Positions 9,888 to 46,619 of a DNA stretch of 64,000 nt are shown piece by piece (the stretch's first letter is position 1; every line of letters begins with the position of its first letter). A model generated the notes under the pieces. It did no database searches and was not told the origin of the DNA. It worked only from the letters and a program-made list of their open reading frames with translations. Made by a program: the position numbers and the translations under genes. This stretch comes from a virus. The stretch spans positions 1-64,000 of the IMG/VR virus record IMGVR_UViG_3300032770_000013; one strand, 5' to 3'.

Positions 9888-10982
9888 CTAGGCTCCAAAT
9901 CCAAGTGGGCCGTTGAACGCTGCGCTATCTTCAGCCGACGGTTCAGGCTGCTCTACAAGTTGGAAGCCAGAACGATCTGCCGTTGCTGGCGACCATGCCT
10001 CAATGATTCTCGTGACGGTTTCCACGTCTTTGATCCAGAACGGAACGCCGCGCTGATTCGTGATGCTGATGGCATCAACACGCTGGCCGCGCGCTTCTGT
10101 CGTATGCAACGTCAAACCGACGAAACGGCCGTCCCCAAGCGGGATTGCGCCGTCTTTGATCTCGTCAAATGTCGTGCAGCGGCCGAAGTTTTCGATCTCA
10201 GCCAGTAACCGCGCAGTGCGAGCTTCTGGCAAGGTTGCATGGCCTCCTAGATCAATGGCATTTTTCTGGATGTGGATTCGCGCGCGGTAGGCATCACCAT
10301 GAAGGTAGACGCCGTGATAACCACTGCGATTGGCACGATGAATTGGCTTATTGTGGCCGTTCTCACTTTTGGTCGCTGGACGAAGATTGCTCCAACGATT
10401 GTCGGCTTTATCGCCATTAATGTGGTCAACTTCGTGCTCTGGCCACTCGCCAGTCATGTAGAAAAAAGCAAGCGAGTGCTCAAGGTACTTTTTGTAATCA
10501 AGGCCGATCTGCCGATAACCAAGACCGTGATGACCCCCGGCGCGGTCGCCAATATTTGCAATCGATGAGTTCACGCGCCACGTAAACCAACCAGTCGCAG
10601 GTTCGTAGTGCAATAGCTCTTTAAGTCGCTCCTGCGTCAGCTGGCGCCTTTTGATGGCACCTTTGTGCTCATCCTGGACAAACAGATTCGCAATGCGATT
10701 GTCGGTCTTGCTTCCGTTGAGATATTTGATGCGGCCGCACGGCCATTCCCCCTTGACATAAAGCCAAGCAAGGACGCCGGCATTGTAGTTAGTCGCATCA
10801 ACAGAAATCATCGTGTATCCCAATGTGCTGATCCTGCCAGCACCAACTTTCCCGTGTTTGCGATCAGAGCCAGACCAAGTCCGTGGCTGTTGACGTCGAA
10901 CAAAAACGCCTGTCTCCGGATCGTAGTGAAACAACTCCTTCAATCGGTCCTGCGTTGGCCTAAGCCCAATTTCCTTTGCCAT
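9888..10982 (-). CDS. HNH homing endonuclease (tandem HNH modules plus AP2-like domain)
   Basis: Two TQxRLKELxHYxPxTG modules; VDHINGDKADNRWSNLR. Confidence 0.85.
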   Translation of the reverse strand: MAKEIGLRPTQDRLKELFHYDPETGVFVRRQQPRTWSGSDRKHGKVGAGRISTLGYTMISVDATNYNAGVLAWLYVKGEWPCGRIKYLNGSKTDNRIANLFVQDEHKGAIKRRQLTQERLKELLHYEPATGWFTWRVNSSIANIGDRAGGHHGLGYRQIGLDYKKYLEHSLAFFYMTGEWPEHEVDHINGDKADNRWSNLRPATKSENGHNKPIHRANRSGYHGVYLHGDAYRARIHIQKNAIDLGGHATLPEARTARLLAEIENFGRCTTFDEIKDGAIPLGDGRFVGLTLHTTEARGQRVDAISITNQRGVPFWIKDVETVTRIIEAWSPATADRSGFQLVEQPEPSAEDSAAFNGPLGFGA

Positions 10983-11049
10983 TTCTTTTCTCCACTTAAT
11001 CACCTATTCGGTGAATGTAGCATGAGAAAAGATAATCACAAGAGAAAAC

Positions 11050-18128: not shown

Positions 18129-19046
18129 CTACAATTTCGCCATCGGCACTATGCCAAGCCGATCGAGCGCATTCCCAATGCAAGCGGCTGGCGTCAGAAT
18201 ATCTCTAAACCTCTCAAACTGCTTGGCATACAGCGCCTTCCAGAACGGCTTGTAGGATTCCGCCTCCCGGTAAAACCCGTCCAAGCTATCCGCAAAGCTG
18301 ATGATCTGATTCCAAGGCGCAGCCAATTCATGCGGCTCCGCAATGACCGGGCGTCCAAGGCTTAATGCCGACGCGCAGCGAGAGGACGACACCAGCCCCA
18401 TTTTCTCAAGGATCCGGATTTGCACGATAATCCGCGCACTCTGCATTTCCAGATCACGGGTCTCCTGCGCCGAAGCCGTTGGGTTATGCAAGGAAATCAA
18501 CTTGACCGTCCCGCGCCGACCAAGCTTCCTGAGAATTTTATATCGCCTGTTCGACACTGAGCCATAAAACCCGAAATCATGATCTGGCTGGCGGATTTGC
18601 GGCCGCATCATGCCGGGAGAATAGCCGAGTTCAATCTGCTCTGTCGGTGCATATTGCCCATACCAATGCGCTGTGTTCGGCACTAGAGCTAAGACGGCAT
18701 CGGCATATTTGGCGGCTTCGGGAAAAAGAGCCTGCCGCAAAACCATAAATCGATCGGCAGCATGATTAAAACCAACAAATCCAGGCTCCTCACAAGGCTC
18801 TTCAGTTGCAACAAAGATGAACCGACAATCATGTAATCTGCGCGCCTCTTTAAGCATGGCAATCGAAAGTAAATTAAATCCTTCAAAAATCAGATTTACA
18901 CCATCCTTTCCACGTAGAAATTCATCGTCCGAATGATCTATTTGATGACCTAAAGATCGGAGTTGATGGACAATAATTTGCGATGGGTCTTGTAATGACA
19001 GCCTGCCAATTTGTGAGTGATTAAAAAGATTTAACCGAAAGCGCAA
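18129..19046 (-). CDS. Glycosyltransferase-like protein (GT-B type)
   Basis: DFGFYGS...RR and VSSSRC...RPVIAE motifs; paralog of 53585-54772. Confidence 0.55.
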   Translation of the reverse strand: MRFRLNLFNHSQIGRLSLQDPSQIIVHQLRSLGHQIDHSDDEFLRGKDGVNLIFEGFNLLSIAMLKEARRLHDCRFIFVATEEPCEEPGFVGFNHAADRFMVLRQALFPEAAKYADAVLALVPNTAHWYGQYAPTEQIELGYSPGMMRPQIRQPDHDFGFYGSVSNRRYKILRKLGRRGTVKLISLHNPTASAQETRDLEMQSARIIVQIRILEKMGLVSSSRCASALSLGRPVIAEPHELAAPWNQIISFADSLDGFYREAESYKPFWKALYAKQFERFRDILTPAACIGNALDRLGIVPMAKL

Positions 19047-19048
19047 AA

Positions 19049-19139
19049 TCGCCTCGCCATACCAAACCGGGCCGATGCCAAAACATGCCTTACCTTTGCG
19101 AGCCGGGGCTTACCAAACTCCAGCATGCCGCACCATAAC
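19049..19139 (-). ncRNA. GGY-NN pentamer tract E (putative guide RNA)
   Basis: About 18 units, ending GGCGAGGCGATTTT. Confidence 0.75.
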
Positions 19140-19157
19140 TCAAAGCGATAAAAAAAT

Positions 19158-19254
19158 CCTCGCCGCGCCACACGCTGCCAGACCGTGCCGTGCCTCAGCA
19201 GACCCCGGCTCGCCCCGACAGGCCACGCAAGACCCGGCCGCAGCGTACCATGCC
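19158..19254 (-). ncRNA. GGY-NN pentamer tract D (putative guide RNA)
   Basis: 19 in-phase units, ending GGCGAGGA-T7. Confidence 0.8.
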
Positions 19255-19277
19255 TCCTTCAAAAATCGCCAAAATAT

Positions 19278-19410
19278 CCTCGCCTAATCCAAACCTCACC
19301 CGGCCTTGTCATACCTTGCCACAGCTCACTGAGCCAAGCCGGGCCGCACTTAACCTAACCTAGCCACGCCCCGCGTTGCCAAATCGCGCCCGGGATCGCC
19401 ATGCCCAACC
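19278..19410 (-). ncRNA. GGY-NN pentamer tract C (putative guide RNA)
   Basis: About 26 units, ending GGCGAGGATATTTT. Confidence 0.75.
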
Positions 19411-19421
19411 GCTCCGCAAAC

Positions 19422-20036
19422 CTACTTGAAGTTTACGATTCCAAAGCGGCCGAATGTCGGCCTAAAATCACCGATGCCGATCAAGCGACCAGCACTTTCA
19501 ATCGTTTCGCGCAAGGCATTGTGATCGACGTATTCCGGCAGCATCACGAGAAGATCAAACGTGACCTTCCAGCCGGCGCGCAAGGCAGGCCGCACGCGGT
19601 TGATACCTTGGCGCTGAATCATAACGCGCCGTTTATCCAAATAATCCCAATCCTTTACGCCGAGAGTGGCGAGCGGACTGGTGACGACAATGGCGGCCTT
19701 GAACAGGTCCATTGCGGACTTCCGCGGTGACCGCGGATCTTGCCGGAATTTCGCCGCGTTGATGATTGAGCCGCGAAGATACTCGCCGGGGACACAGATT
19801 TCACCGGCGTCGTTCCGATAGACGTAGGATTCTACGTCATCGGTCTTTTTGCCTTTGGAATTTTTAGCGGCGCGGGCTTTTTCATCGACCGCCTCGCTAT
19901 TCCATCTGTGCATTAAAAGATCGGCGGCCCCTTGAATCGTCACGCGAACCGGATATGGCTCGCTGTGAGAGATGACTTCGTTGCCACCGGAAGTCGGCTC
20001 AGAAATGTGGATAACTTTAGCTTTAGTTGCAGTCAT
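19422..20036 (-). CDS. Stand-alone RAMP/Cas7-like RNA-binding protein (Vipr-like)
   Basis: VTIQG..DLLMH, VPGEYLRGSI, RVRP and C-terminal G-loop GIGDFRPTFGRF; flanked by pentamer tracts. Confidence 0.75.
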   Translation of the reverse strand: MTATKAKVIHISEPTSGGNEVISHSEPYPVRVTIQGAADLLMHRWNSEAVDEKARAAKNSKGKKTDDVESYVYRNDAGEICVPGEYLRGSIINAAKFRQDPRSPRKSAMDLFKAAIVVTSPLATLGVKDWDYLDKRRVMIQRQGINRVRPALRAGWKVTFDLLVMLPEYVDHNALRETIESAGRLIGIGDFRPTFGRFGIVNFK

Positions 20037-20060
20037 TGTATTTGCTCCATTTTGGTTGAT

Positions 20061-20149
20061 GGAGACCTCACCGCACCGATGCTTGCCCTAGCTTGCCCAA
20101 CGCGACCTGACCAAGCCGCACCAAAGCGCGCCGTAAGCAAAAGGTCTCC
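20061..20149 (-). ncRNA. GGY-NN pentamer tract B closed by a GGAGACC/GGTCTCC stem
   Basis: About 14 units inside a 7-bp inverted repeat. Confidence 0.75.
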
Positions 20150-20269
20150 CCCGCGCTGAGCCTGCTAAGCCCGGAACGCGGTTCAGGGGTCACTTTTCAG
20201 CGACACTCAGACACGGGGAAGTTCGTGAGAGGTGCCGCGTTCTTCGCGTTAGCAGCCGCGAATGGAAAA

Positions 20270-20297
20270 ATAATACCGAAAATAAATCGAATGTCTA
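20270..20297 (-). promoter_or_regulatory. Sigma70-like promoter for tract B and the RAMP gene
   Basis: TAGACA-16nt-TATTAT. Confidence 0.5.
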
Positions 20298-20316
20298 GTG
20301 CCATTCACCAGCCCAA

Positions 20317-20332
20317 TGTTTCACGTGAAACA
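20317..20332. promoter_or_regulatory. parS-like ParB binding site
   Basis: Perfect palindrome TGTTTCACGTGAAACA. Confidence 0.7.
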
Positions 20333-20345
20333 TTTTGGTAATGTC

Positions 20346-20464
20346 GAACGGAGCCCGAAGGCCCCGTTCTCCCTTACCGAAACTCACCGCAGCCAACCGG
20401 ACCGGACAAGACCATGCCGAAGCCCACAACGGCAAACCATACCAAGGCCAGCACAAGCCCCACC
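20346..20464 (-). ncRNA. GGY-NN pentamer tract A with 3' hairpin
   Basis: About 18 units then GAACGGGGCC-TTCG-GGCTCCGTTC; TATAAT upstream at 20478-20483. Confidence 0.75.
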
Positions 20465-20517
20465 ACGTGAGGACAACATTATACAGTAATTCGTAACGTT
20501 CCAGTATATTTTCAGCT

Positions 20518-23500
20518 TCATGTTTTGCGATTCTCAACATGAGCGAACGGCTTGGTGGTCTTACCATGTTCAAGCCATTTTTTGAAATCCGGCAACGTCA
20601 TTTGGTGAATTGCGCCGACACGGTCCACTCCTCGTCCATCTGCAAATGCGCGGTGATAGACATTGGTGGCATGCTTGAGCGATGCCGCGCCAAGAATTAT
20701 TTTGTGCTCATCGAACTTCTTAGTGTCGGCGTCAACTTGATCCACGATGTAAACACATTTCGCTCGCGGGTGGTCGCACAAAAATACGTCTAGGTTATCA
20801 CCATCGGCACCATCGTGGCGTTTCAAATATCCGTAGTGGGCTGGAAGCACGCTCCGCCAAGGACGACCATCCTTATCGATGCCGCGACGGATTCCGCCTT
20901 TGCCATTTTCAATGGTGATCTGAAGTCCGAATTTGTGCAGATGGTCCTTTTTGTAATTCCCCGCTGCGATCTGCGCTTTGCTTGGATGCTTTTCGATATT
21001 CCGCACTTCGACTCTTCCCCCATGCGCCCGCTTTGGCGTCAAATTCTCGATTGCCTCATCCTTCGTCTTTCCGGTCGAGAGTAATTCGCCGTCCTTGTCG
21101 TAGACGCCCCATTTATTGAGCGGGATACCGGTAAACTCAGCCGTCAGACCTTGCGGTAATACTCGGCCGCCGCTGGCTCTTGCCTGCGCCTTTTCCTGCT
21201 GAGAGACCGTTGGCCTGCCCTGCAATTCATTCGATATATCGCTGATCCAGTTATCTTTTTGACCAGTGACGTTCATCATGAAGTTGTCGTACAGCTTTTG
21301 CGGTGTTGATTCGCTGCGCGCATCCTCCACGTTGGTCGACGGTCGAAAGTCCGCGTATGGGTCTGGTGCCGGACCGCCATCAGCTCGCTCAATTCTCTCG
21401 CGCGGCCCTATTGGATCGCTTGGATCGACGTCGGCTGTTTGCCGAGCCATCTGCCATTCGGCGTTGGATTGAGATTCGGGATGATCGTCTGGAGCGCAGA
21501 TAGAGCCGCCTTGGGCCATCCCTTGTGTATTGGTCTTTGCGAATGGATCGTAATCTACGGGAACGGTTTGGAAATGAGATGCACCCCCTGCAACCAATCC
21601 GGCGAGGCCGTATTTCTTGATGATGTCGATCAGCTTGTCGTTGAAGACGACGTAATTTCTGGTCGGATTCTCATATGAATTTATCTGCGCCTGAAGGTTT
21701 TTGATCACGCCTTCATCACCGCGCGCTTGGGCTTTTTCTAAAGCTGTCCGCAGTGCCTGCAATTGAGTCGGTGTCGCGCGAGAGCCTTGGTCTAGATATT
21801 TGATACCGGGGATTCCAGCATCGCGAAGTTGCTGCGCCACGCGCTGAACATCGGTGTGACCTTGGCCCGGCGTATGCAGACTGATTTCATTGTTGCGATA
21901 AATCTGCTCGCCGGTCTGATTCGCGTGCGCTTCTGGATGCGCGAGCCAAGCGTCTTTTAATTTTTGCTGGACAGCCGGACTCTGCTCACTCAGCGGCTTA
22001 TCCCAATCAAGGAAATGCTCGGGATCGGCGTTGATGTTGACTTCGTAGAGATTGCCAGCCTTTGATGGGTATGGTATTTCACTGCGAACATGAAGATCGC
22101 CCTTATCTGCGCTTCTTGCGGCAAGAGCTTCCTCAAGCATCGCAGTGCTTTGAGGCCCAATCAGCGGACGTTTTGCAGTCGCGAGTGCCACGTAAGGGGC
22201 CAGCATATCGACGGCCTTAACGCGGCTGGCTACAAGATTATTCGCGTTGGTAGGAAGCAAGTCTACGAGCATAGATGGATTATTGAGCAAAGCATCGGAC
22301 GTAAACTCCTTCCCACCGAGCATGTGCATCACATCAACGGGAAGAAGTCGGACAACCGCCTTTCCAATCTCCGGGTCTTGGAGGAGTCCACGCATCACCG
22401 GGAGCACGTCGCTCCTACTTTCGACATCGAGCGAGCGAAAGCCCTTTACGAGCAGGGGATTGGATACCGCAAACTTGCCGAAATTTTCGGCGTGGCTCGC
22501 CAAAACATCAGAGGGTGCTTCATACGTAGGGGCTGGCATGTTACCGGCCGTACCCGCCGTTCTATAACTCTCGGCAGTTGATGGATGCTCAGCCAGATAA
22601 ATTCCATGCCCATAAGCCTGTGCGCCTTCGCCGGTGCCGATCTTCGATAGATCGAACTTGTCGAAGTCGTAGGGGCTGCCGTGATAGGCGCGGATGCCTT
22701 GGGGTTGTGGAACTTCGGACAACAAAGGATGAATGAGCTTATCGCTTCCGACATTAGCGGGATCAAACGAATCAAAACGTGATCGCACTTGGCTCGGTTC
22801 AAAGACCATGATGTGCGGACGACCCGGCGTTCCAGTTATCTCCTTCTGCGGATCGCCAATGATCGCATCATATCCAGCGTCCCGAATGGCCTGAGCCTTT
22901 AGCGCCACAGGTGTGTCTTGACCAAGGCCGTGATAAAAAAGCGTGCTGCCGGTCCAGTATTTCAGCGGGCCACCTTCGATCATCTTTTTGGCCTGCTCGG
23001 TGCGGCCGGCGGCTTTCAAAACTTCTGCCGCTTGCTCGGCAGTTATCGGCTGGTCCATGCGAAACGGATTCTGCACTTTGAGCTTGACGGGCATGACGCG
23101 CGGAGTATCGCCGGACCAGGCGCCAGTGTGCTTATTGGCAAATTCAGCGGACGGCGTGAAATAAAAGTTGCCCCCGTATTGTATGTTGTCGCGGACCTTC
23201 ATCGGATCGAAAGCTTCGAACTCCTGCGAGCCAGTCCCGTGGAATGCGTCAATCGTCCAACCTTGCTGTGCGGCTCGCGCCATCCGGCTTGCTTCATCCA
23301 TTGGGAGCGCAGCGCGAGCGGCAGCAGTTAATTCCGGCGCAACCTTTTCGGCCGCCCCCATCGCCACCTTGGCTGCCCGCATTTCCGGCGTCAGCAACCC
23401 GGCAGCCGACATCAGCGCGAAGTTCTGCGCTTCATCGGGCGTCATCTGACCACGCAACGCGCTGATTGCATCATTGACGCCAGTCACATCGCCAGCAACA

Positions 23501-23649
23501 TTGGCGACCTTCCCGGGCATTGATGCTATATCTTGCCCTACAGTCGGTGGCGCAATTGTCTGCCCCGGCTTGGCGACTGGCCCTACCGCGAACGGATCAT
23601 GATCGACCGGAACGAGGTCATAATCAGGCTGCAATTGATCGTCGGGCAC
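20518..23649 (-). CDS. Polyvalent ejected protein: two ADP-ribosyltransferase-like domains and a C-terminal pyrophosphatase-like domain
   Basis: AFHGT..YFTP; AYHGSPYDFDKFD..GHGIYLAE; GNYKK..ITIEN..HYGY..GADGD..FDEHK. Confidence 0.7.
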   Translation of the reverse strand: MPDDQLQPDYDLVPVDHDPFAVGPVAKPGQTIAPPTVGQDIASMPGKVANVAGDVTGVNDAISALRGQMTPDEAQNFALMSAAGLLTPEMRAAKVAMGAAEKVAPELTAAARAALPMDEASRMARAAQQGWTIDAFHGTGSQEFEAFDPMKVRDNIQYGGNFYFTPSAEFANKHTGAWSGDTPRVMPVKLKVQNPFRMDQPITAEQAAEVLKAAGRTEQAKKMIEGGPLKYWTGSTLFYHGLGQDTPVALKAQAIRDAGYDAIIGDPQKEITGTPGRPHIMVFEPSQVRSRFDSFDPANVGSDKLIHPLLSEVPQPQGIRAYHGSPYDFDKFDLSKIGTGEGAQAYGHGIYLAEHPSTAESYRTAGTAGNMPAPTYEAPSDVLASHAENFGKFAVSNPLLVKGFRSLDVESRSDVLPVMRGLLQDPEIGKAVVRLLPVDVMHMLGGKEFTSDALLNNPSMLVDLLPTNANNLVASRVKAVDMLAPYVALATAKRPLIGPQSTAMLEEALAARSADKGDLHVRSEIPYPSKAGNLYEVNINADPEHFLDWDKPLSEQSPAVQQKLKDAWLAHPEAHANQTGEQIYRNNEISLHTPGQGHTDVQRVAQQLRDAGIPGIKYLDQGSRATPTQLQALRTALEKAQARGDEGVIKNLQAQINSYENPTRNYVVFNDKLIDIIKKYGLAGLVAGGASHFQTVPVDYDPFAKTNTQGMAQGGSICAPDDHPESQSNAEWQMARQTADVDPSDPIGPRERIERADGGPAPDPYADFRPSTNVEDARSESTPQKLYDNFMMNVTGQKDNWISDISNELQGRPTVSQQEKAQARASGGRVLPQGLTAEFTGIPLNKWGVYDKDGELLSTGKTKDEAIENLTPKRAHGGRVEVRNIEKHPSKAQIAAGNYKKDHLHKFGLQITIENGKGGIRRGIDKDGRPWRSVLPAHYGYLKRHDGADGDNLDVFLCDHPRAKCVYIVDQVDADTKKFDEHKIILGAASLKHATNVYHRAFADGRGVDRVGAIHQMTLPDFKKWLEHGKTTKPFAHVENRKT
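22090..22581 (+). CDS. HNH endonuclease with zinc finger and HTH, nested antisense within the polyvalent gene
   Basis: CASC..FCSREC; YEHR..VHHINGKKSDNRLSNL; C-terminal HTH. Confidence 0.8.
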   Translation: MKIALICASCGKSFLKHRSALRPNQRTFCSRECHVRGQHIDGLNAAGYKIIRVGRKQVYEHRWIIEQSIGRKLLPTEHVHHINGKKSDNRLSNLRVLEESTHHREHVAPTFDIERAKALYEQGIGYRKLAEIFGVARQNIRGCFIRRGWHVTGRTRRSITLGS

Positions 23650-25840
23650 GGCTGACTACCTTGAGATACTTTCCGGGACGATGAGGATCAGCCAAATAAT
23701 AATTGCCGTCCCTCGCCAGTCTAGCCCCCTTCGGTAACTGTGGATTATCGGCCTTCTGACGCTTCGAATCGGATGGCTCGCGTATCTTGCCACCTTGCGC
23801 TCGCGATTTCCCTTGCTGATCTATTGCGCCGCCGTGTTTTTGCTGGGCTGGTGGCCGTACAATGTTGTTCTGATTGGGTGCACCCTGTGCCGTCCCCGGT
23901 CCTTGCTGCGCAAGATTTTTAAGGTCAATCCCAAGCGGCGTAAGAGCGCGTTGCAAATTCATCGTAGCCGCGACCGCCGCCCGTTGCCGAATAGGATTCG
24001 GTGCCACTTGCAACGCTGATTTGGCGCGGTTCCACTGCTGCATTCTGTCGGCAACGATAGGCAGCTGCTTGGTGATACCAGAATGCAATCGCTCCAATGC
24101 TCGTTCCGTCTGACTGCCAGCAGCAAGTCCAGCAAGTTCGCCGACCAGCGGAATCGGCACGACAGCATGACCAATCAAAGCTCCAACGATGCCGCCTATC
24201 CGGCTTCTAATCGCAGCCATTGCCTGCTGTATCGGAGGAGCGGAAGGAAAGTAACTTCCCGGCGGCATCGTAATGCGCCGCATCAGATTGGCATAGGCGC
24301 GCAAGGTCTCCTGTTCCTGCGGCGAGTAAATGACACCAGCCATATCGCTATTAAGAAACTTGCTCATGCGTTGGGCTATTTGCCCCGTACCCAATGCAGT
24401 CTCGCCTTCTCCGGCTTGCATTAATTTTTGGGCGACACCCTGCTTCGTAGCTATCCATTCTGGCGACTGCTCGCCGAGAATCGATTTTAACCGATTGGCC
24501 ACGCCGATATTCAAGGTAGTCGGATTGGCTGATGAGCCGACAATTTGATCCATGACCTTCCCGGAAGTAAGAGGGTCATTAACATTGTCGCCGATTATCT
24601 TTTGAACGACACGGCCAACTGGATCATTTCTGCCTGCGGTAAAAGTGCTACGATAATCCGCATAGGCCGCGCGAGCATTGTTCCAAGCCGCAACCGCTGC
24701 TGGGTCTCCCGTATAGCGACCGCCGTTTACTGCTTGGTCAATTCGGTCGTCGAAAGCATCAATAACAGCCTGCGCCGCTCGGCCATCGGCGGCATTTCCA
24801 CTTGCGTAGGCGTCCTTTCTGAAAGACGAAAGGCGCTTCCGCATTTGGTCGACGCCATCCAGATTGATACCGGTTATGTTCTGCGGATCTGGAACCGGAG
24901 TAGCCTTCTGTAATTTCGCAACTCCGTTATTCAGATCATCAATCATCTTCGACGCAAACGGTGTCGTCTTGTCGTCAATAATGACCGGATTATCGCCAAG
25001 CGTGAGATCGTTTCTGATGCCTTGGCTTATATCCTGAAAAACGCCAGCATGAATCTCACCTGGCAACGCACGGGCCTGCGCATATGCCTGCGCAACTGCT
25101 GCTTTCCTTGCCGCCGCAGTGTTCTGCACGCCTTGGGAAACTAGCTGCCCAGCCTCTTGCGGAGTTTCAGCCAAAATCTGACGCGCTGGATCAAGTCCCT
25201 CTACCAGCGCATCCTTCGAGTCCTGCAACTGCTTCGCCCGCTGCGCCGTCCAAGCCTCGGTGCCTGGCACTGCATTACGAATCGCCGCAGCTTCCCGCTG
25301 GCGCAATGCTAGATCGTTAGCCGCCTCTCCCTTGCTCAGGGTCACTCCAAACGGAGCTTCGGGCAGTTCAACGGGCTTAGGAATGCCCTTCGGCACCGGC
25401 AACAAGAATGACGCGCCGATTTCTGCTGCTGTTCCAGCCGCAGGGCTTCCAGTAGCTTCGGCAATCGGCCTGCCAACGATAGTATGCAACGGAGCATTAA
25501 TCGGCGACGTAACGTAGCCAAGGCCGCCAAGAGCGACGTTGCCCAAGCCCTTAGCAACTTCCAACGGCTCGCCAGTTTCGATTTGCGAAACGCCCTGGCC
25601 CATCTGGCCAATGGATTCCTTCACCATCTTCTGATAAGTTGCAGGAATGCTCGTGATCGGCTCAATGGCTTTCGCCAGAGGCGATACCTTGTCGCTTGGG
25701 TCCGCGTCGCTCGGCAAAACGAATTTTGGTTCGTCCGCAGCCGCTTCTGGCGGCGTTCCGTTTACAGGAGGCGCAGTCGCAGTTGCCGGTGGAGGCGCGG
25801 CAGGAGCGTCGCTCGGCAGAACAAAATCATCGTCGCTCAT
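23624..25840 (-). CDS. Internal virion / DNA ejection protein
   Basis: 738 aa, helical A/Q-rich; position. Confidence 0.6.
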   Translation of the reverse strand: MSDDDFVLPSDAPAAPPPATATAPPVNGTPPEAAADEPKFVLPSDADPSDKVSPLAKAIEPITSIPATYQKMVKESIGQMGQGVSQIETGEPLEVAKGLGNVALGGLGYVTSPINAPLHTIVGRPIAEATGSPAAGTAAEIGASFLLPVPKGIPKPVELPEAPFGVTLSKGEAANDLALRQREAAAIRNAVPGTEAWTAQRAKQLQDSKDALVEGLDPARQILAETPQEAGQLVSQGVQNTAAARKAAVAQAYAQARALPGEIHAGVFQDISQGIRNDLTLGDNPVIIDDKTTPFASKMIDDLNNGVAKLQKATPVPDPQNITGINLDGVDQMRKRLSSFRKDAYASGNAADGRAAQAVIDAFDDRIDQAVNGGRYTGDPAAVAAWNNARAAYADYRSTFTAGRNDPVGRVVQKIIGDNVNDPLTSGKVMDQIVGSSANPTTLNIGVANRLKSILGEQSPEWIATKQGVAQKLMQAGEGETALGTGQIAQRMSKFLNSDMAGVIYSPQEQETLRAYANLMRRITMPPGSYFPSAPPIQQAMAAIRSRIGGIVGALIGHAVVPIPLVGELAGLAAGSQTERALERLHSGITKQLPIVADRMQQWNRAKSALQVAPNPIRQRAAVAATMNLQRALTPLGIDLKNLAQQGPGTAQGAPNQNNIVRPPAQQKHGGAIDQQGKSRAQGGKIREPSDSKRQKADNPQLPKGARLARDGNYYLADPHRPGKYLKVVSRARRSIAA

Positions 25841-28800
25841 TGCTGCGGCTCAGTCAGGAGCGTATCGGCGATGCCATTGCCATATTTTCTATTGATCGCC
25901 GCAATGGCCGCAGGGTTGTCACGATGAGCAAGTAACGCGGCCCGGTCCCGCGGATCCACAAGGCCGTTTGCAATCGCGCGCCTTGAATAAACTTCCGGCG
26001 GATTAGCCCTGTTAAATTCAATCTCAGCCCCAACCGTATCGCCGCCATGGGTCCGCATATAATCTCTGGCAAACTGGTAGTAGTCAGCTTGCCGCTGGAC
26101 CTGCTGTTCGATAGCCGAGGAAACCAGTCGGAAGCCTGTCGGCGTATTTTCGGCATTAGGCACCGAACTGGTCGCCTGCTGGACGATCATCATGGCCTCG
26201 CGGGAGCCGAGCGTCCGGGCGAGTTCAAAGCCCATTTGCGTCGTCTGCTTATTCAGGCTTTCCCAGCTTCCAACGGTCTTTGGGTCGAAAACCGGATTGG
26301 CCCCAAGCGTCGCGGCAATCGAGTTGATGGTCTTGGCCAGACCGACGCGGGCTGATTCGCCAGTGCCGGTAGTCGACCAGCCAGCCGCATTAAGCTGATC
26401 GGCATCCTGCCGCATGATGCCCAGCCGCATTTTAATGTCTTGGGCATTGGCGTAGGCATCACCAGCCTTTTCGAACTTCTTGGCCGCATCCTTCTGCATT
26501 TCCTCAATGGCAGGAGTGACCGACGAGGATACGCTGCCGTCTGGATTGCGGATCAGCCGGGGGGCAAATTCGCTAGGCTGGCCCAATGGGAGGACATTAG
26601 GCGGCGTAGGAGCGGCTGGAGCGGCAGCGGGGGCACTTGGGGTACCCGGCGCGGCAGGCGTACCAGTGACGCCCGGAAGCCTGCTAATGGCCCAATCCTG
26701 AGCCGCCCGAAGGGCAGGACTGGTATCCGCACCAGTTGTAACCACCTGATTCGGAGCGACCGCTATTGGCCTGCCGCCCTCTCGGATAGCCGCCTGAGCA
26801 ATATCGTAAGGGGCTTCGGCCTCCTTTTTGAGACCAGCGGCCCTAGCCGCTGCTTCTGCGGCACCCGGAACCGGAATGACGTTCCCATTCTGATCGGTTG
26901 TGATTCCTTTGGAAATCATCGTCTCGTACAGCGACATCATCTTTTCGCCAGCCGACTGGTAAGCCGGGACGCCAGATCGGATATACCGCTGTGCCGTGGC
27001 GAGGAGATGGTTGGGATTCATCACTGGCGTATTATTCGCATCCACCGCCACTGGACCCTGCGGCGTCTGTCGTATCGCCGCCACGTTGGACACGGCCTGT
27101 GTAGCTTGATGTAAAGTCGCTACCGGGTTTTCGGCAGGCGCAATGTTCGGAGTTGCGGCCTGTGGAGCAGGCGGCAAAACAGACGCAAGGCCAGAACGCG
27201 GAGTAGCGGTTACCGTCCCGGTATCCTCGTCCCGCATCTTCGTCAGCGCATCAAGATTTCTTGCCTCGGTCTCCGCTTCAATCGACAGCTTCCGAGCCTG
27301 AGCGTTTATTACCTTCTCGTTCATTTCCTGCTGGCGCTCGGTCGTATAAGTCTGCGCACCAGCCAGTGCACCTTCACCTAGCGCAACGCCCGGAAACGGT
27401 GATCGAGAAGCGAGCATTCCAGCACCGGCCGTGATTAGCGCGGGCCAGAGTTTGGAATTACTCGACCAATCAATACCTGATGTTGGAGCAACTCCCTGCG
27501 GCGCGGAGACCGACACGTTACCTATGTCTAGCGGTGCACCGGAAGTCGCTGCATTGATGGCCATTATTCCCGGCGCATTTGCTATGCCGTTTTGGTTAGC
27601 AAAGGCCAAAGCATGCACGCCATTGAATCTGCTATCCCAAAGATTCGTAAATTGACCAGCCGTCATTCCCGGCGCACCGCCATTCTGCACGACCGCATTG
27701 TGACCGACGATGCTTGATGCTGGCGCATCGGGATTTGTCAACAGAGCGAGCGCGCCATTCGCCCCCTGCTGATGAGCTAAATACAATTCAGCAGCAGTCG
27801 GATCGCGACCGAGACCAGCGCGCAATGTCTGGAAATTATCACGTCCCAAGCGACCAGCCGCATCCGTACTAGCTACCGGATCTGTAGGATCATCCAAACC
27901 ATATTGCCGCGCTGTGCTCGGTATGAATTGGAATAGCCCGGTTGCGCCAGAAAATTCGTTCCGAGCGTCGGGATTGTAGTTGGATTCAATCTTGGCGGTC
28001 TGCGAAAGATAGCCGGGAGGCAAACCGTACTTCGCCTCGGTCTTGTCAAACAACGTCGGGCTGCGACCGCTTGCAACTTCATCTGGCATTGCTGCGACAT
28101 CCGCCGCGATTGGCCGAGACTGAGGCAGCGGCACATCAGTCGGCGCGACACCGGCATTCGGCGGCGGCAATACGATGGCGTCACCCGTGGCAGGATTGAC
28201 GACGCTGTTCGACCAAGACGGCATATTGGTCACGTCGCCAAATTCTTGATTAAAGTCTGGCGAGCCACCATCGGCATATCCCTTCGGCATCACGATACGA
28301 TCATGCGTCGGCAGATTGGCAATACCGCCAGAAGCATATCGTCCGACCGAACCGCCGCGGTGATAGATGGCCTCGCTCGAGGAAGGCGGCGGAGCTACAC
28401 CTTCAGGAATAGGCACGATCGTTCCAGCGGGAGACGGCGTAAACGTGCTGCCGGGAGGCGAGATATTGGTCGGCTGGTTCAAGCCTAACTGAATCTGCTG
28501 ACCAAGCTGACCGATGCCTTTTGCCTGCTGGGCGATGCTGGGTTGCTGTTGTGCACCGAGGTTTGGCGGATAGCCCGGAGGGCCGCGGCCATGCGCCGGC
28601 TGCGAGGACGGCACATAGTTGACGCCGCCAGTATAGGGCAGACCGGATGACACAGGCGGCAGACTTCCCGGATAAGGCATGCCACCGGAATGCGGCGCCC
28701 ACGGATAAGCCATTGCCACACCGCCACCCGGCGCAAATCCCGGAACGCGATTCGCTACGCCGCCACTGGAGCGGCGGATCGCATCCTCAGTCGCACGATC

Positions 28801-29853
28801 ATAATCGACATGCTTCCAGCCGCCGATCTCGCGGATGGCATCAGGATGATGCTTCTGCACCTCCTGCGCTATCAAACCGATCCGGGTCGTCGGATCGCCC
28901 TTGTAGTTGAAACGATAGATCGTCTGACCATCAAAAAGCTTGCCGATCCTGCGGATGTTTTCTTTCGCCCGGCGATCAGAAAGAGCGCCGAGAGCGGGAA
29001 GATATGAAAGCAATCCAGCCTGGCCACCTAACCCGGTAGCAAGCGTGCCGAGGCCGGCAATCTGGCTGATCGGATTAGGCGGCGGCCCGACCGTCTGCGA
29101 CGTGCCGCCCATCAAGCTCCCAAGACCGCCAAGCTGGCTCGCTTCCCATCCCGTCGCCTGAAACGGATAACCAAGCTGAGCAAGGTATTGCTGATAGGCA
29201 AAGGTGTCGGCCGCCTGTTGGGTTTGCTGCGCCGTTGTGCCAAGGCCGAATTGCTGGCCGGCACCGGTCAAAGCTGCATTCTGACCGGCCACGCCAAGAC
29301 TACCGACCGAATAGGCTCCGGACGCCAAAGCCTGTTGCTCGGTCAATGCGGTATTGACGCCTTGGGTATAGCCTTGGCTTTCCAGTCCGGCGATGACCGG
29401 GGCCTGGGCAAGCTGTTGCTGGTTCGCCAATTCGGCCGCTGCAATGGCTTCTCGATTACCCCCCATCGCACCTTGCGCGATCGCATTGCCCTGAACTTGT
29501 TCCTGCTGCTGTGCGTTCTGATTGGCAAATTGAGCCTGCGTCGCATTGACTACTGCTGCCGTGTAAGGGTTCGTATATTGCGAAATATCCGCCGCAGTAA
29601 TTGGTTGTGCCGCCTGCTGCGCCATCGTCTCCGCAGTGTTCACATACGGAACGGCATAACCCGCGTATTGATTGGTGTTGGCGATGCCGGTGCGCTGCTC
29701 TGGCGTAAGCGGAGCCACACCTTGACCAGTGAACGCCGTGTAGGGTGTTTGCCCGATATTCTGGATGGTCGGGATGACCGAGCTATACGCCGCCATTGCC
29801 GCCGGGTTAGCGGAGGTGGTTTGCGTGGTCGTGTTTTTGTTAGTCCCACACAT
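25837..29853 (-). CDS. DNA ejection protein with peptidase S74-like chaperone domain and lytic transglycosylase domain
   Basis: SDRRAKENI..IYRFNYKG..GLIAQEV; IESNYNP..ATGLFQF..T..YGL. Confidence 0.75.
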   Translation of the reverse strand: MCGTNKNTTTQTTSANPAAMAAYSSVIPTIQNIGQTPYTAFTGQGVAPLTPEQRTGIANTNQYAGYAVPYVNTAETMAQQAAQPITAADISQYTNPYTAAVVNATQAQFANQNAQQQEQVQGNAIAQGAMGGNREAIAAAELANQQQLAQAPVIAGLESQGYTQGVNTALTEQQALASGAYSVGSLGVAGQNAALTGAGQQFGLGTTAQQTQQAADTFAYQQYLAQLGYPFQATGWEASQLGGLGSLMGGTSQTVGPPPNPISQIAGLGTLATGLGGQAGLLSYLPALGALSDRRAKENIRRIGKLFDGQTIYRFNYKGDPTTRIGLIAQEVQKHHPDAIREIGGWKHVDYDRATEDAIRRSSGGVANRVPGFAPGGGVAMAYPWAPHSGGMPYPGSLPPVSSGLPYTGGVNYVPSSQPAHGRGPPGYPPNLGAQQQPSIAQQAKGIGQLGQQIQLGLNQPTNISPPGSTFTPSPAGTIVPIPEGVAPPPSSSEAIYHRGGSVGRYASGGIANLPTHDRIVMPKGYADGGSPDFNQEFGDVTNMPSWSNSVVNPATGDAIVLPPPNAGVAPTDVPLPQSRPIAADVAAMPDEVASGRSPTLFDKTEAKYGLPPGYLSQTAKIESNYNPDARNEFSGATGLFQFIPSTARQYGLDDPTDPVASTDAAGRLGRDNFQTLRAGLGRDPTAAELYLAHQQGANGALALLTNPDAPASSIVGHNAVVQNGGAPGMTAGQFTNLWDSRFNGVHALAFANQNGIANAPGIMAINAATSGAPLDIGNVSVSAPQGVAPTSGIDWSSNSKLWPALITAGAGMLASRSPFPGVALGEGALAGAQTYTTERQQEMNEKVINAQARKLSIEAETEARNLDALTKMRDEDTGTVTATPRSGLASVLPPAPQAATPNIAPAENPVATLHQATQAVSNVAAIRQTPQGPVAVDANNTPVMNPNHLLATAQRYIRSGVPAYQSAGEKMMSLYETMISKGITTDQNGNVIPVPGAAEAAARAAGLKKEAEAPYDIAQAAIREGGRPIAVAPNQVVTTGADTSPALRAAQDWAISRLPGVTGTPAAPGTPSAPAAAPAAPTPPNVLPLGQPSEFAPRLIRNPDGSVSSSVTPAIEEMQKDAAKKFEKAGDAYANAQDIKMRLGIMRQDADQLNAAGWSTTGTGESARVGLAKTINSIAATLGANPVFDPKTVGSWESLNKQTTQMGFELARTLGSREAMMIVQQATSSVPNAENTPTGFRLVSSAIEQQVQRQADYYQFARDYMRTHGGDTVGAEIEFNRANPPEVYSRRAIANGLVDPRDRAALLAHRDNPAAIAAINRKYGNGIADTLLTEPQQ

Positions 29854-35575: not shown

Positions 35576-36079
35576 TTAATTTGGCCTCGCAAACTCGCCA
35601 TGAGGCCGATTAGCAGCATCCACATACGCATGATGAGCCGCAATCTCGGTATCGAAAAGTCCCAAATGTATCCGTTTATTCTCGTGTTGTATGTTTGCGA
35701 GCCATTTCTGCGATGCTTTGTGCCAACTCACGCCCTTAAATTTCGAACTCTTCGGTCTAGACCATTGTTTCCGGTTATGCTGATTTTGCGATTTTGTCGC
35801 GGCACGAAGGTTATCAATTCGATTATCGTCTCTAACACCATTTTTGTGATCGACTTCAAATTCAGGCCATTCACCAGTCTCAAAAAGCCAAGCTATCCGA
35901 TGTGCCTGATAGACTTTGCCTCGCAGTTCAATCTCGCGATATCCTTGACCGTTTTTGTGACCTGCTTCAGCGCCGACCGAACATCTGCGTGCAGGAGCGG
36001 CCCTCCAATAAAAAAGGCCAGTCTCCGGTTCGTACCGAAGCCAAGACATGAGTTCGTTGCGAGTTAGACTTTCAGCCAT
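35576..36079 (-). CDS. HNH-AP2 homing endonuclease
   Basis: AHRIAW..VDHKNGVRDDNRIDNLR; FKGVSW..HLGLF. Confidence 0.88.
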   Translation of the reverse strand: MAESLTRNELMSWLRYEPETGLFYWRAAPARRCSVGAEAGHKNGQGYREIELRGKVYQAHRIAWLFETGEWPEFEVDHKNGVRDDNRIDNLRAATKSQNQHNRKQWSRPKSSKFKGVSWHKASQKWLANIQHENKRIHLGLFDTEIAAHHAYVDAANRPHGEFARPN

Positions 36080-44216: not shown

Positions 44217-46619
44217 TCATGGAGCCGCAGGCTCTACTGGTTGTGTCGCCAATTGATGCTGACGCTCCAAGGCATTCTGATTGGCCTCGTGCTGCCGATC
44301 CAGATGGCCTTGGATCATTTCGTGGGCCCGGGCAACACCAGCCTGCCTAGCCTCGTGAACCCTGCCAGCATGCGCCTCTGCGGCTTGCTGCGCGCCCTGA
44401 TTCGCCTGCGCCCGGTTCGCCGCGGTCGCCAAAGCCAGTTTATGAATGCGCTCCGCCGCCCGATTCTGATTGCTGATACCCAACTCTTCCCGCGCAGCCT
44501 GCTGATCGGCATTGTGGATTACGAGCTCGCGCGCCACCCCAAGTGAGGCAATTTTTTCCTTGCTGGCAATGGTTTGCGTGTCCGTGGCGGATTTAAGCTG
44601 CGCCTCTTTCGCTCTCGTCTGACTATCCGCCAATCGGGCTTCGGCAGCCAACAGCGTAGCTTGGGCAGTTATTGCACTCGGATCTGGCTGCGCTGCACCG
44701 GGCGGCGGAGCGGGCTTAAAGAATCTCTGACTGTCATCCACGCCCATAACCTGAAAGGCCCAGTCGTCGACTTCGTTCAGGTCTAAATTCGGATTGGTCA
44801 TTGCCATCTGCCGCGCGGCCACGACCTTCAGATACCGCTCGGTCTGGCTCGAGGTGTTCGGATCGGCCGCCGGCACCAATTCACAATCGCTCAATGCCGC
44901 AAGGAATAGCTCCCGGTGCCGCTCTTCGGCTTCGTCCTCAGCGTCTACCACTGGCTGCTGTCCGGCTTCGGCAGTCAGTAGAGCCAATACTTTGCTTTTC
45001 TTGTTATGCCTCCAAAGGGCCTCTGGGTCTTCCTCCAAGAGGCTCTTGAGCATATCAAATTCAGCCCCTTGCGCCTGATGTAGTCGCTTATGAACAGCCG
45101 ACATCAATTTCGTGGCCTGCTCAATCAGAGCAAGCGTAGTGCCCACCGGAGCATCTTGCCGACCCTCTCCGATCTGCAATTCCGCCGTTCCACCAACGCG
45201 CTGCGCTGTGGTGGCAATGTTCTCGATAAGCTGGATGAAAACCGCGCTCGGATCCTTGTACGGCAACGGCATTATCGCCTTGGAAATATCGTTTCCGACC
45301 GTATCGATCGCCATGCCGCCGCCTGGCGGAATGCGGAACTGGTTGGTTAATTGCTTGGCGAGGGATTTGAGATAGAGAAATCCGGGGAAGTTGGCGAACA
45401 TGCCGGCGTCGATCATCAGCCGCCATGCCGCCGTCACAGCCTTGGTGGCATTGCCGAGAACATTCAGCAGGCCGATGCCGTAGAACCCCAAGCCTGGAAT
45501 GAAGATGTAGGCGATGATACGATTGACGGCGAGGCAGAACGCATCGTCCTCATCCCAATTGCGGCGGATTTCAAGAATTTTCCGGGCTTCCTTGTCGATC
45601 GTCACCTTGTACGGCAGCGGCAGTCCGGTTTCCTTGCTCTCCAGTTTATGCTCGAAGCCCGGCAGGTCGTACTCGCAATAACACTCGTAGAGCTCGCGGT
45701 CCTGATCGGCGGTGTCGAGATAGGTGGAAGGCGCTATGCCTTGCGTCTGGTCAATCTTGATATCGACCGCATCGCGCGGTGCCGGCGTTCCCGGAGCGGG
45801 CAAGCTGATATCGCGGTAAACGCCCAACAGTTGCATACGCCGCAACACGCTTGGCCGCATCATGACGCGGTGGGTGACTCGGCCAGCACCGTCAATATCC
45901 GTCGCCGAGTTGCTGACGATTAAATCGTTCGCATCAATCGAGGCGATGACCGGACGTCGCTTGATCGGATCGTGACTGCCCTTCTTGAAGGAAATCCCGG
46001 AGAACCCGAGCATCAGCAGCATTCTATCCGTGTCGGGATAGTATTCTTTCGCTACCTTGGTCAGGTAATGGTTCAAATCCTTTTCGAGCGCTTGGGCCAG
46101 CCGTGCCGATAGCGAGTTCTCCTCGCCATCATTGCGGACCTTGACCGGCCCATCGGACGGCAAAAGCTCGCCGCGGGCATTCGCCTGAAAGCGCAGGACG
46201 GCCTCGAGCAGGAGCGGATGGTCGACGGTGGATACGCCTTCGGCCGGCGTGGCTCCCGAGGCCGCGGCGCCGCGGGGATTCTTGACTTGGAGGCCGAGCA
46301 ACGAAATGCCGTTGCTCATATTCTCCAGCCATTCCTGGCGGCTTTGCAGATCTTGCTCGATGCCGAATAGTAGCTTCTCAGCCATGAGGCTGAGTTCGGC
46401 TTCGCTTAGTTCTTCCGCTAGATTGGCCTTAAAGCCCTTGTCTTCTTTGCTTTCTTGCGGAGGCGGACCCCAAGTAATCTCGACATTGCCGTCAGGAAGC
46501 GGGACTTGTACGGTATTGGTCCCGATATCGTAATCAACTGCGTCCGGGTCATCGCTGGAGAGGGCGACAACCACGTCCGACATGGGCATAGAGCGATCTA
46601 ATTGGTAAACATTGCTCAT
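44217..46619 (-). CDS. Portal protein
   Basis: 800 aa; HPLLLEAVLRFQA..ELLPSDGPVK, PGLGFYGIGL, APVGTTLALIEQ. Confidence 0.88.
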   Translation of the reverse strand: MSNVYQLDRSMPMSDVVVALSSDDPDAVDYDIGTNTVQVPLPDGNVEITWGPPPQESKEDKGFKANLAEELSEAELSLMAEKLLFGIEQDLQSRQEWLENMSNGISLLGLQVKNPRGAAASGATPAEGVSTVDHPLLLEAVLRFQANARGELLPSDGPVKVRNDGEENSLSARLAQALEKDLNHYLTKVAKEYYPDTDRMLLMLGFSGISFKKGSHDPIKRRPVIASIDANDLIVSNSATDIDGAGRVTHRVMMRPSVLRRMQLLGVYRDISLPAPGTPAPRDAVDIKIDQTQGIAPSTYLDTADQDRELYECYCEYDLPGFEHKLESKETGLPLPYKVTIDKEARKILEIRRNWDEDDAFCLAVNRIIAYIFIPGLGFYGIGLLNVLGNATKAVTAAWRLMIDAGMFANFPGFLYLKSLAKQLTNQFRIPPGGGMAIDTVGNDISKAIMPLPYKDPSAVFIQLIENIATTAQRVGGTAELQIGEGRQDAPVGTTLALIEQATKLMSAVHKRLHQAQGAEFDMLKSLLEEDPEALWRHNKKSKVLALLTAEAGQQPVVDAEDEAEERHRELFLAALSDCELVPAADPNTSSQTERYLKVVAARQMAMTNPNLDLNEVDDWAFQVMGVDDSQRFFKPAPPPGAAQPDPSAITAQATLLAAEARLADSQTRAKEAQLKSATDTQTIASKEKIASLGVARELVIHNADQQAAREELGISNQNRAAERIHKLALATAANRAQANQGAQQAAEAHAGRVHEARQAGVARAHEMIQGHLDRQHEANQNALERQHQLATQPVEPAAP

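Follow-up and report, generated by a model that had tools for sequence, protein, structure and literature searches.

The window, which is the whole stretch of 64,000 nucleotides of viral DNA that was analysed, carries on its minus strand a gene (20518-23649) for a polyvalent virion/ejection-module protein of 1043 aa, recognised as a stop-free frame in the list of open reading frames (ORFs) and by its Pfam matches to the ART-PolyVal and InPase families. The upstream neighbour of this gene, hereafter the host gene, encodes a DNA-ejection protein/transglycosylase (25837-29853). An earlier note on this DNA had described a complete HNH ORF lying antisense within the open frame, and both ORFs were found where it had placed them, with no stop codon in the host frame. 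The HNH homing-endonuclease-type gene (22090-22581, plus strand, 163 aa) lies wholly within the host ORF, in window coordinates in the exactly codon-aligned antisense frame. The low coordinate of both frames is 1 mod 3, so that the HNH codons are the exact complement, codon for codon, of host codons ~357-520. The cassette to which the gene belongs spans ~22052-22545. Since its length is divisible by three and the HNH gene has no TTA, CTA or TCA codons, the 1043-aa host frame is continuous and gains ~160 residues. DNA similarity among cassettes stops just past the RRGWH codons, and the conserved cassette comprises a promoter-like motif and the HNH gene and is barely longer than the latter. The C-terminal tail and stop codon of the HNH gene (22546-22581) lie beyond the conserved cassette core, opposite the conserved host residues STAESYRTAGTA.

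The HNH gene and its promoter-like motif

The 163-aa protein was said in the earlier note to combine a zinc finger, an HNH motif and a helix-turn-helix, and Pfam, PHROG and an alignment of relatives all bore this out. The zinc-ribbon cysteines C7, C10, C29 and C33 (22108-22188) occupy nearly invariant columns of the alignment, and the N-terminal CxxC...CxxxC ribbon is kept across the relatives. The catalytic core, EHVHHING..DNR..NL..HH..H (22264-22398), corresponds to residues 59-103 and matched HNH_3 (PF13392) with 39 bits against a cut-off of 24.8, while the C-terminal helix-turn-helix (22423-22503, residues 112-138) matched HTH_7 with 27.7 bits against a cut-off of 23.8 (E 2.9e-6). HNH families in PHROG also matched the protein, the best with an E of 2.5e-18. 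The catalytic residues H78, H80, H81, N89, N93, H102 and H106 were invariant in the alignment of 13 relatives. A sequence search of solved structures with the HNH profile gave no match for the clade. A second HNH gene in the window, free-standing at 35576-36079, likewise has an open codon-aligned ORF on its antisense strand.

In the HNH frame, nonsynonymous divergence (pN 0.15-0.44) was well below the saturated synonymous divergence (pS 0.56-0.95), with an omega of ~0.1-0.3. Purifying selection acts on the HNH frame, which is not a decayed remnant.

The promoter-like motif of the cassette (22052-22080, plus strand), as read from the sequence, consists of TTGCCA, 17 nucleotides ending in TGG, and TATTTC, followed by 9 nucleotides to the ATG. 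A motif of the form TTGnnn-16/17-TAnnnT, 6-9 nucleotides upstream of the ATG, was present in 12 of 24 relatives as compared to 4% of random 110-nucleotide windows. The -10 element in the window (TATTTC) is weak, and a consensus scan of 21800-22900 returned neither the cassette promoter nor a terminator; the assignment as a putative promoter is based on comparative conservation of the motif only. The HNH mRNA is probably leaderless since a Shine-Dalgarno sequence is absent. One relative, L090, has AAGGAGG ahead of its ATG.

The split ART-like domain and occupancy of the insertion site

The host protein begins its recognisable domains with an uninterrupted ART-PolyVal domain (aa 129-290, 22780-23265; PF18760, E 9e-20). 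A second, ART-like domain follows in two parts. The N-terminal half (aa 318-368, 22546-22698), with the motifs AYHGSP and GTGEGAQAYGHGIY, is kept in all homologues, and the C-terminal half (aa 532-690, 21580-22056), with the motifs GNLYEVNINADPEHFLDWDKPLSEQ, GIPGIKYLDQGSR and NYVVFND, is kept in homologues and was modelled with a pLDDT of ~90. Between them lies the host-frame read-through of the cassette (aa 369-531, 22057-22545), which is missing from homologues that lack the HNH gene; it was modelled as helical with a pLDDT of 36-79, and its sequence is dictated by the antisense HNH codons. The InPase domain (aa 892-1027, 20569-20976; PF18823, E 1.6e-41) is encoded downstream of the insert, so its production requires that the frame be read through.

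The HNH gene had been placed between two ART-like halves in the earlier note; the flanking motifs are indeed the conserved halves of one domain in the homologues. When the host protein was aligned with insert-free homologues, a check that the note had proposed, the two halves were found to be joined there by a variable spacer of ~8-100 aa. The cassette is thus located in a naturally variable spacer between the half that carries the Y strand and the half that carries the catalytic strand of an ART-fold domain, and consequently interrupts no tight loop. The N-terminal half in homologues matched positions ~8-53 of the ART-PolyVal profile with 26-30 bits, below the cut-off of 31.2. The split domain resembles ART-PolyVal (Tox-ART-HYD2-like; Iyer et al. 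2017, PMC5512222) in its H and Y motifs, its modelled ART fold and its ejection-module context; unlike the ART-PolyVal Pfam model, it represents a subfamily whose spacer at the site of insertion varies.

In the AF2 model, the flanks of the split domain had a pLDDT of ~90, and the strands of the N-terminal half 79-91. Both halves together aligned by VIA-align to 9k3a_B, a pre-ejectosome protein of cyanophage A4 (Z 11.1, 141 residues, rmsd 3.1), and to the ART catalytic domains of diphtheria toxin, PARP (tankyrase), MbcT and ParT (Z 6-7.7). The ART matches spanned model residues 16-387 and skipped the insert. Foldseek found no PDB match to the model at E<=1e-3, and the ART fold was seen only with the wide VIA search. 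As modelled, the two halves form a single ART fold, with Z of 7-11 to known ART folds, from which the insert departs as a low-confidence helical excursion. For the insert peptide, the searches returned no family, and the only fold matches were to generic helical bundles (Z<=5.2).

The same ART-like site is filled at five other loci (L099, L089, L101, L102 and L104) and in the proteins P0002/3, P0006 and P0121/2, for which the antisense HNH gene of P0002, P0003, P0006 and P0121 was deduced from the host-frame peptide. The occupied proteins differ greatly in overall architecture. At least six loci and 3-5 protein clusters are occupied at this site, and among homologous domains the HNH gene may be present or absent there. 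An insert inside a catalytic fold, at a site common to at least six loci, is new here. Other relatives (L098, L090, L186, L187 and L188) are sited in non-ART linkers of giant proteins.

The flanks of insert-free homologues were 48-64% identical to those of the window and the flanks of insert-bearing homologues 38-57%. The distribution of the cassette is disjunct; in their flanks, insert-free homologues resemble the window as much as insert-bearing ones do, or more. Protein P0121 was 84% identical to the window in the N-terminal half and 82% in the insert and only 47% in the C-terminal half. The analysis found no close relative of this phage that lacks the cassette. The possibility that the insert-free spacers are decayed cassettes was considered and rejected, as a search of six-frame translations of 80 loci (L007-L086) with the HNH profile found nothing at the spacers. 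Occupancy of the single site by the gene is incongruent with host-gene relatedness, which is the pattern of a homing gene. Together with purifying selection and the invariant catalytic residues, presence or absence at the same site upholds the classification of the gene as a homing-type HNH in the earlier note.

Maintenance of an open antisense strand

Full-length relatives of the HNH gene were found at 40 unique loci. At 20 of these the gene is antisense to, and codon-aligned with, an open frame of 400 to at least 3299 codons. Among the remainder, 3 also have an open antisense frame and 17 have 1-10 antisense stops. The sole frame ever open opposite the HNH relatives is the codon-aligned one. 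Nesting may have arisen once or several times, the HNH tree being weakly resolved. L186 and L187, the most distant of the nested copies, lack an obvious start codon.

For 11 nested copies, each with 0.7-9.6 antisense stops expected, the number observed was zero in every case, and synonymous sites are saturated among the related nested copies. The joint probability is ~1e-14 (~1e-9 excluding L188) if the copies are taken as independent, an assumption that the kinship of the nested copies makes too generous. Three non-nested copies, L087, L088 and L179, have three antisense stops each. L087 is a natural control for stop avoidance: it has lost the part of the ART domain between AYHGS and FDDKLIDILKKYG, its host frame is no longer intact and stops are present. 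The absence of stops in nested copies, as against three in each non-nested copy, supports the view that selection holds the host frame open. For the window locus alone, ~2.3 antisense stops would be expected and P(0) is ~0.09, so that the significance of the open antisense frame derives from its recurrence across loci and not from this single locus.

A profile of the host-frame peptide matched 364 protein clusters, mostly of giant proteins, at E<=1e-10; the number was 1058 with a limit of E<=1e-3 and 32 with one of E<=1e-30, and 138 of the 150 best clusters were at least 500 aa in length. The omega of the antisense frame was 0.63-0.95 in nested pairs (1.09 and 1.18 in two pairs) and 0.79-1.56 in pairs with at least one free copy, a comparison confounded by the overlapping frames and by base composition. 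The lower antisense omega of the nested copies is therefore suggestive at most.

Interpretation and relation to known systems

The best explanation, to which we assign a probability of about 0.8, is that a mobile HNH homing-endonuclease cassette manages without splicing within a coding region since the strand antisense to it also forms an open frame. The earlier note had proposed a homing gene that spares its host by in-frame antisense insertion in place of splicing, and as far as sequence can carry the argument, that proposal stands. The steps envisaged, which we infer from the sequences, are read-through, HNH expression, cleavage and homing. The phage would translate straight through the insert, the ART fold would tolerate the extra residues as an excursion, and the InPase domain would still be made. 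A sigma70-like promoter within the cassette would drive transcription of the HNH gene against the direction of the host gene, and the mRNA would have little or no leader. The enzyme may then nick or cut cassette-free alleles of the domain in co-infecting relatives, and recombinational repair would copy the cassette, at times with a flank, into the cut alleles. Selection acting on the host protein, and through it on the element, would purge antisense stops while the HNH protein stays under purifying selection. It is moderately probable that this is the way of life of a whole HNH lineage, which would have evolved a stop-free, codon-aligned antisense strand, enter tolerant stretches of giant virion/polyvalent genes, even in the middle of an ART fold, be read through as harmless filler, and move between unrelated sites as one self-promoted leaderless cassette that retains its stop-free antisense strand.

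Several other explanations were weighed. The cassette may have been domesticated, such that the read-through peptide is a functional lobe of the virion protein, or the HNH protein a weapon against co-infecting relatives, or both, and the element is no longer purely selfish. The somewhat lower antisense omega in nested pairs than in pairs with at least one free copy and the modelling of the insert as helices, with a pLDDT of up to 79, would fit this suggestion. However, the omega difference carries the confounding noted above, the insert resembles nothing more specific than a generic helical bundle, and the same peptide occurs in unrelated linkers of other proteins, so that we regard domestication as unlikely. 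It is less probable still that the host gene is expressed as two proteins, the upstream part ending or being cut within the insert and the downstream part restarting, as with nrdA of phage Aeh1, and the open frame merely preventing polarity. Peptidases are common in polyvalent proteins, which may be processed (PMC5512222), and the related cassette of L087 sits at a broken host frame, but neither a stop nor a conserved restart signal was observed in the nested copies, and the model predicts joint folding of the two ART halves, although two chains could do so too.

An accidental origin, in which insertion of the HNH gene abolished the function of the second ART-like domain and its host frame is fortuitously open, would be compatible with the P(0) of the window taken by itself and with the open antisense ORF of the free-standing gene at 35576-36079. 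The census makes this explanation highly improbable, as 1) 20-23 of the 40 unique relatives are open, in ORFs of up to at least 3299 codons, 2) the frame stayed open despite saturated synonymous divergence, 3) stops appear at the expected rate solely in non-nested copies and 4) the read-through peptide is found in hundreds of giant proteins. Removal of the insert, either as a group I/II intron with an antisense endonuclease gene or by intein-like protein splicing, has precedent in that homing endonuclease genes usually reside in introns or inteins, and Didymium has nuclear group I introns that carry endonuclease genes in antisense; it is likewise highly improbable, since an Rfam search of 19000-26000 for intron families (E<=1) returned none and only a chance S4-leader match, a Pfam scan of the 1043-aa protein (E<=0.1) revealed no Hint/intein domain, and removal would abolish the need for a stop-free antisense strand that is nevertheless strictly maintained. 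The conserved cassette, being only the promoter-like motif and the HNH gene, leaves no room for a ribozyme, and the contention in the earlier note that no splicing occurs agrees with this shortness and with the empty searches.

In the usual view, a homing endonuclease gene spares its host gene only by residing in an intron, in an intein or between genes. Read-through of an insert whose opposite strand is translatable, as proposed for this locus and its relatives, is a different route and, if true, would add a third way, after introns and inteins, of parasitising a coding sequence. Intron and intein endonuclease genes likewise occupy a conserved site in a conserved gene without destroying it, but they are removed at the level of RNA or protein, whereas here there is no sign of removal and the antisense strand is kept translatable instead. 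Free-standing phage HNH endonucleases, such as the I-HmuI-like enzymes and the mob genes of the T4 family, have the same domain type, an HNH combined with a DNA-binding module, and L088 and L179 are free-standing close relatives of the present gene. Cleavage followed by recombinational repair is the presumed means of spread of both the free-standing enzymes and the cassette. The free-standing genes are intergenic or divide their host gene, as mobE does in splitting nrdA of phage Aeh1 into two genes ('genes in pieces'), while the host frame here is continuous.

The proposed arrangement would have several consequences. Gene callers report just one of the two genes, and an apparent 'junk' stretch in hundreds of giant phage proteins would be a nuclease gene written backwards. 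The locus would offer a clean natural case of overlapping genes with selection on both strands of one stretch of DNA and, in the context of phage competition, a homing element within an injected effector protein. For protein engineering, it marks sites, here a loop in an ART fold, that may accept ~160 foreign residues.

The closest published case is the ShiLan domain, or 'hidden HNH', elements in DNA methylase genes of mycobacteriophages (Arsenault, Gosselin & Gogarten, Genes 2025; PMC11855218), from which the antisense layout differs. In both systems an HNH gene lies within a phage ORF whose frame is stop-free across the insert, intron and intein signatures are absent, the disjunct distribution among related host genes suggests homing and the in-frame product is predicted to loop out (PMC11855218). 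The ShiLan elements also have no ribosome binding site and leaderless initiation was proposed for them (PMC11855218), similar to the situation here. The ShiLan HNH gene is on the same strand as its host, in the third frame, and its expression is ascribed to the host transcript (PMC11855218), whereas the present gene runs antisense to its host in codon alignment and has a promoter-like motif of its own; the text of the ShiLan paper never mentions an antisense or reverse strand (PMC11855218). The hosts here are giant virion/polyvalent proteins as opposed to methylases, and the present elements extend over hundreds of protein clusters.

An HNH gene within an open host frame

The source virus record in IMG/VR is 95,988 bp long and the window is part of it. 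The ORF list confirmed the proposal of the earlier note that a complete HNH gene (plus strand, 22090..22581, 163 aa) lies wholly inside an uninterrupted, stop-free ORF on the minus strand (20518..23649, 1043 aa). The two frames were exactly codon-aligned, the low coordinate of every codon being 1 mod 3, and host codons from about 520 to 357 faced HNH codons 1-163. The description of the product as an HNH protein with a zinc finger and HTH was also upheld: HNH_3 (residues 59-103, 39 vs 24.8 bits) and HTH_7 (residues 112-138, 27.7 vs 23.8 bits) were above the Pfam cut-offs, many PHROG HNH families matched the plus-strand product (best E 2.5e-18), and among relatives the four-cysteine zinc ribbon was kept while the catalytic His and Asn were invariant. 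The window has three further HNH_3-like genes, 9888-11003 (-), 35576-36079 (-) and 46616-47158 (-), all free-standing and in the same orientation as their neighbours.

Pfam placed an ART-PolyVal domain at residues 129-290 and an InPase domain at residues 892-1027 of the minus-strand product, and the upstream neighbour of its gene codes for a DNA-ejection protein bearing a transglycosylase. Consequently, the host product is a polyvalent protein, delivered with the virion, as Iyer et al. 2017 (PMC5512222) use the term; that paper makes no mention of homing, antisense genes or inteins.

The insertion site in the ART-like domain

Homologues, including Sulfitobacter phage phiGT1 gp5 and many metagenomic proteins, could be aligned to the host on either side of the HNH gene. 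The comparison with homologues lacking the insert, which the earlier note had suggested, revealed that the flank motifs, AYHGSP..GTGEGAQAYGHGLY..YR on one side and G.(L/M)YEVNI..DWDKPLSEQ..GIPGIKYLDQGSR..NYVVF on the other, were joined by a variable spacer only, roughly 8-100 residues long. The cassette takes the place of a naturally variable spacer. None of the spacers of insert-free homologues was recognisable as a decayed cassette.

The N-half matched ART-PolyVal profile positions of about 8-53 with a score just under the cut-off. An AF2 model of host residues 301-694, built on a 30-sequence alignment, had a pLDDT of about 90 for the flanks, while the insert (model residues about 65-230) was helical with a pLDDT of 36-79. 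Foldseek on its own gave no match to this model. In a wide structural search the two flanks aligned jointly and the insert was skipped; the best match was the cyanophage A4 pre-ejectosome protein (9k3a_B, Z 11.1, rmsd 3.1 Å, 141 residues), followed by the ART catalytic domains of diphtheria toxin, tankyrase and other PARPs, MbcT and ParT (Z 6-7.7). The joint alignment of the modelled flanks to ART folds supports the view that the HNH gene lies between two halves of an ART-like domain. Since the best structural match was 9k3a_B, the model suggests that the split-ART subfamily is a packaged ejection-protein module. The split domain spans window positions 21580-22698 (host aa 318-690), and its C-terminal two-thirds is outside the Pfam ART-PolyVal model.

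Chance, selection and possible processing of the insert

Just three HNH codons, TTA, CTA and TCA, would stop the host frame, and the codon usage of the record predicts 2.3 of them in the HNH gene (P(0) about 0.09), so that the open frame at the window locus does not, by itself, exceed what chance allows. The free-standing HNH gene at 35576-36079 (-) likewise has an open, codon-aligned reading frame on its antisense strand (35600-36067, 155 aa); one such open frame can therefore arise by chance.

The decisive evidence against chance is the comparison among relatives, drawn from IMG/VR and metagenome contigs. The census comprised 40 unique loci matching the HNH protein over 110 residues or more: 20 occupied codon-aligned antisense frames that were open for 400 to at least 3299 codons, three more were open but short or cut by the contig end, and 17 had 1-10 antisense stops. 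The open antisense frame was the codon-aligned one only. Each of the 11 nested copies studied closely had no antisense stops, where 0.7-9.6 were expected, giving a joint P of about 1e-14 (about 1e-9 without the copy L188) if the copies are assumed to be independent. The close non-nested copies L087, L088 and L179 had three stops apiece. In the HNH frame pN was 0.15-0.44 and synonymous sites were saturated between most pairs (pS 0.56-0.95). It follows that purifying selection acts on the HNH protein and that the stop-free state has outlasted complete turnover of synonymous sites. Antisense omega was 0.63-0.95 in most nested pairs, with two at 1.09 and 1.18, and 0.79-1.56 in pairs involving free-standing copies; the difference only hints that the peptide read in the host frame is under mild extra constraint where the gene is nested, as the estimate is confounded by frame overlap and base composition.

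That the host is made as two chains, or is processed within the insert, was considered very improbable. Removal of the insert by splicing, as an intron or an intein, was unsupported, in line with the earlier note: an Rfam search around the locus gave no intron family at E<=1, Pfam found no Hint domain in the host protein, the cassette leaves no space for a ribozyme, and a stop-free strand would be needless under splicing. A weak Rfam match to the S4-Bacteroidia leader at 20253-20306 (-) (20.3 bits vs a gathering score of 34.7, E 0.99) is most likely chance.

Probable mobility and expression signals of the cassette

The same HNH clade occupied the same ART-like site in proteins of very different architecture: the window protein (ART, split ART, InPase), L089 (RadC, split ART, ART, LPD38; 2046 aa), L099 (2641 aa), L101 (at least 3263 aa), L102, L104 and, judged by its host-frame peptide, the protein P0002 (LPD23, split ART). 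Other members (L098, L090, L186, L187, L188) were in unrelated linkers of giant proteins. The most distant nested copies, L186:4875-5495 and L187:2-535, kept the catalytic motif and had no ATG, GTG or TTG around the point where the zinc ribbon begins, implying either an unusual start codon or early decay with the host frame still open.

DNA similarity of the cassette (about 22052-22545) across contexts extended from about 40 nt 5' of the ATG to just past the RRGWH codons, and the last 12 codons of the window HNH gene come from the opposite strand of conserved host sequence. Compared with the window, the flanks of insert-free homologues were 48-64% identical and those of insert-bearing ones 38-57%. 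P0121 and P0122 (JGI proteins of 543 and 544 aa) were 84% identical to the window in the N-half and 82% in the host-frame insert, but just 44-47% in the C-half (47% for P0121). This drop suggests that recombination broke off at the promoter end of the cassette, and the one-sided similarity of P0121 is the pattern expected of transfer in which one flank was co-converted.

The closest HNH relative, L087:3900-4500 (IMG/VR 3300024245_000001, 74% identity), is a natural control for the nested arrangement. Its ART-like domain was deleted between AYHGS and FDDKLIDILKKYG, the polyvalent host frame terminated within the cassette, and the three antisense stops were present; the locus appears to represent the nested layout in a decayed or derived form.

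The window ATG is preceded by TTGCCA, 17 nt ending in TGG, TATTTC and then nine nt, with no Shine-Dalgarno sequence upstream; the -10 element is weak and the promoter was not called by a consensus scanner. The strict motif TTGnnn-16/18-TAnnnT was present in 12 of 24 relatives vs 4% of random 110-nt windows. The promoter-like motif was 6-9 nt 5' of the ATG in L087, L088, L099 (=L183), L104 (=L185), L179 and L194, a spacing suggestive of a leaderless HNH mRNA. In L089, L090 and L102 it was about 24 nt 5' of the ATG with GGAG or AAGGAGG between. HNH expression, translation through the insert, target specificity and homing are inferred.

The nearest published parallel, the ShiLan domain (PMC11855218), is inserted in frame and without stops in mycobacteriophage methylase genes and conceals an HNH in the third frame of that same strand; it has no intron or intein signature, and leaderless initiation has been proposed for it. 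The principle is the same, but the window element has its HNH on the opposite strand, an arrangement nowhere mentioned in that text, codon-aligned with the host frame, carries its own promoter-like motif and resides in giant virion proteins. Also new are the insertion within a catalytic fold instead of a linker, a putative homing site that six or more loci share, the L087 control and the similarity of P0121 in one flank only.

When a profile built from the host-frame peptide of 11 loci was searched against 1.84 billion cluster representatives, 1058 proteins matched at E<=1e-3, of which 364 were left at E<=1e-10 and 32 at E<=1e-30. Among the best 150 matches, 138 were at least 500 aa long, and many were 2000-5700 aa with the match internal.
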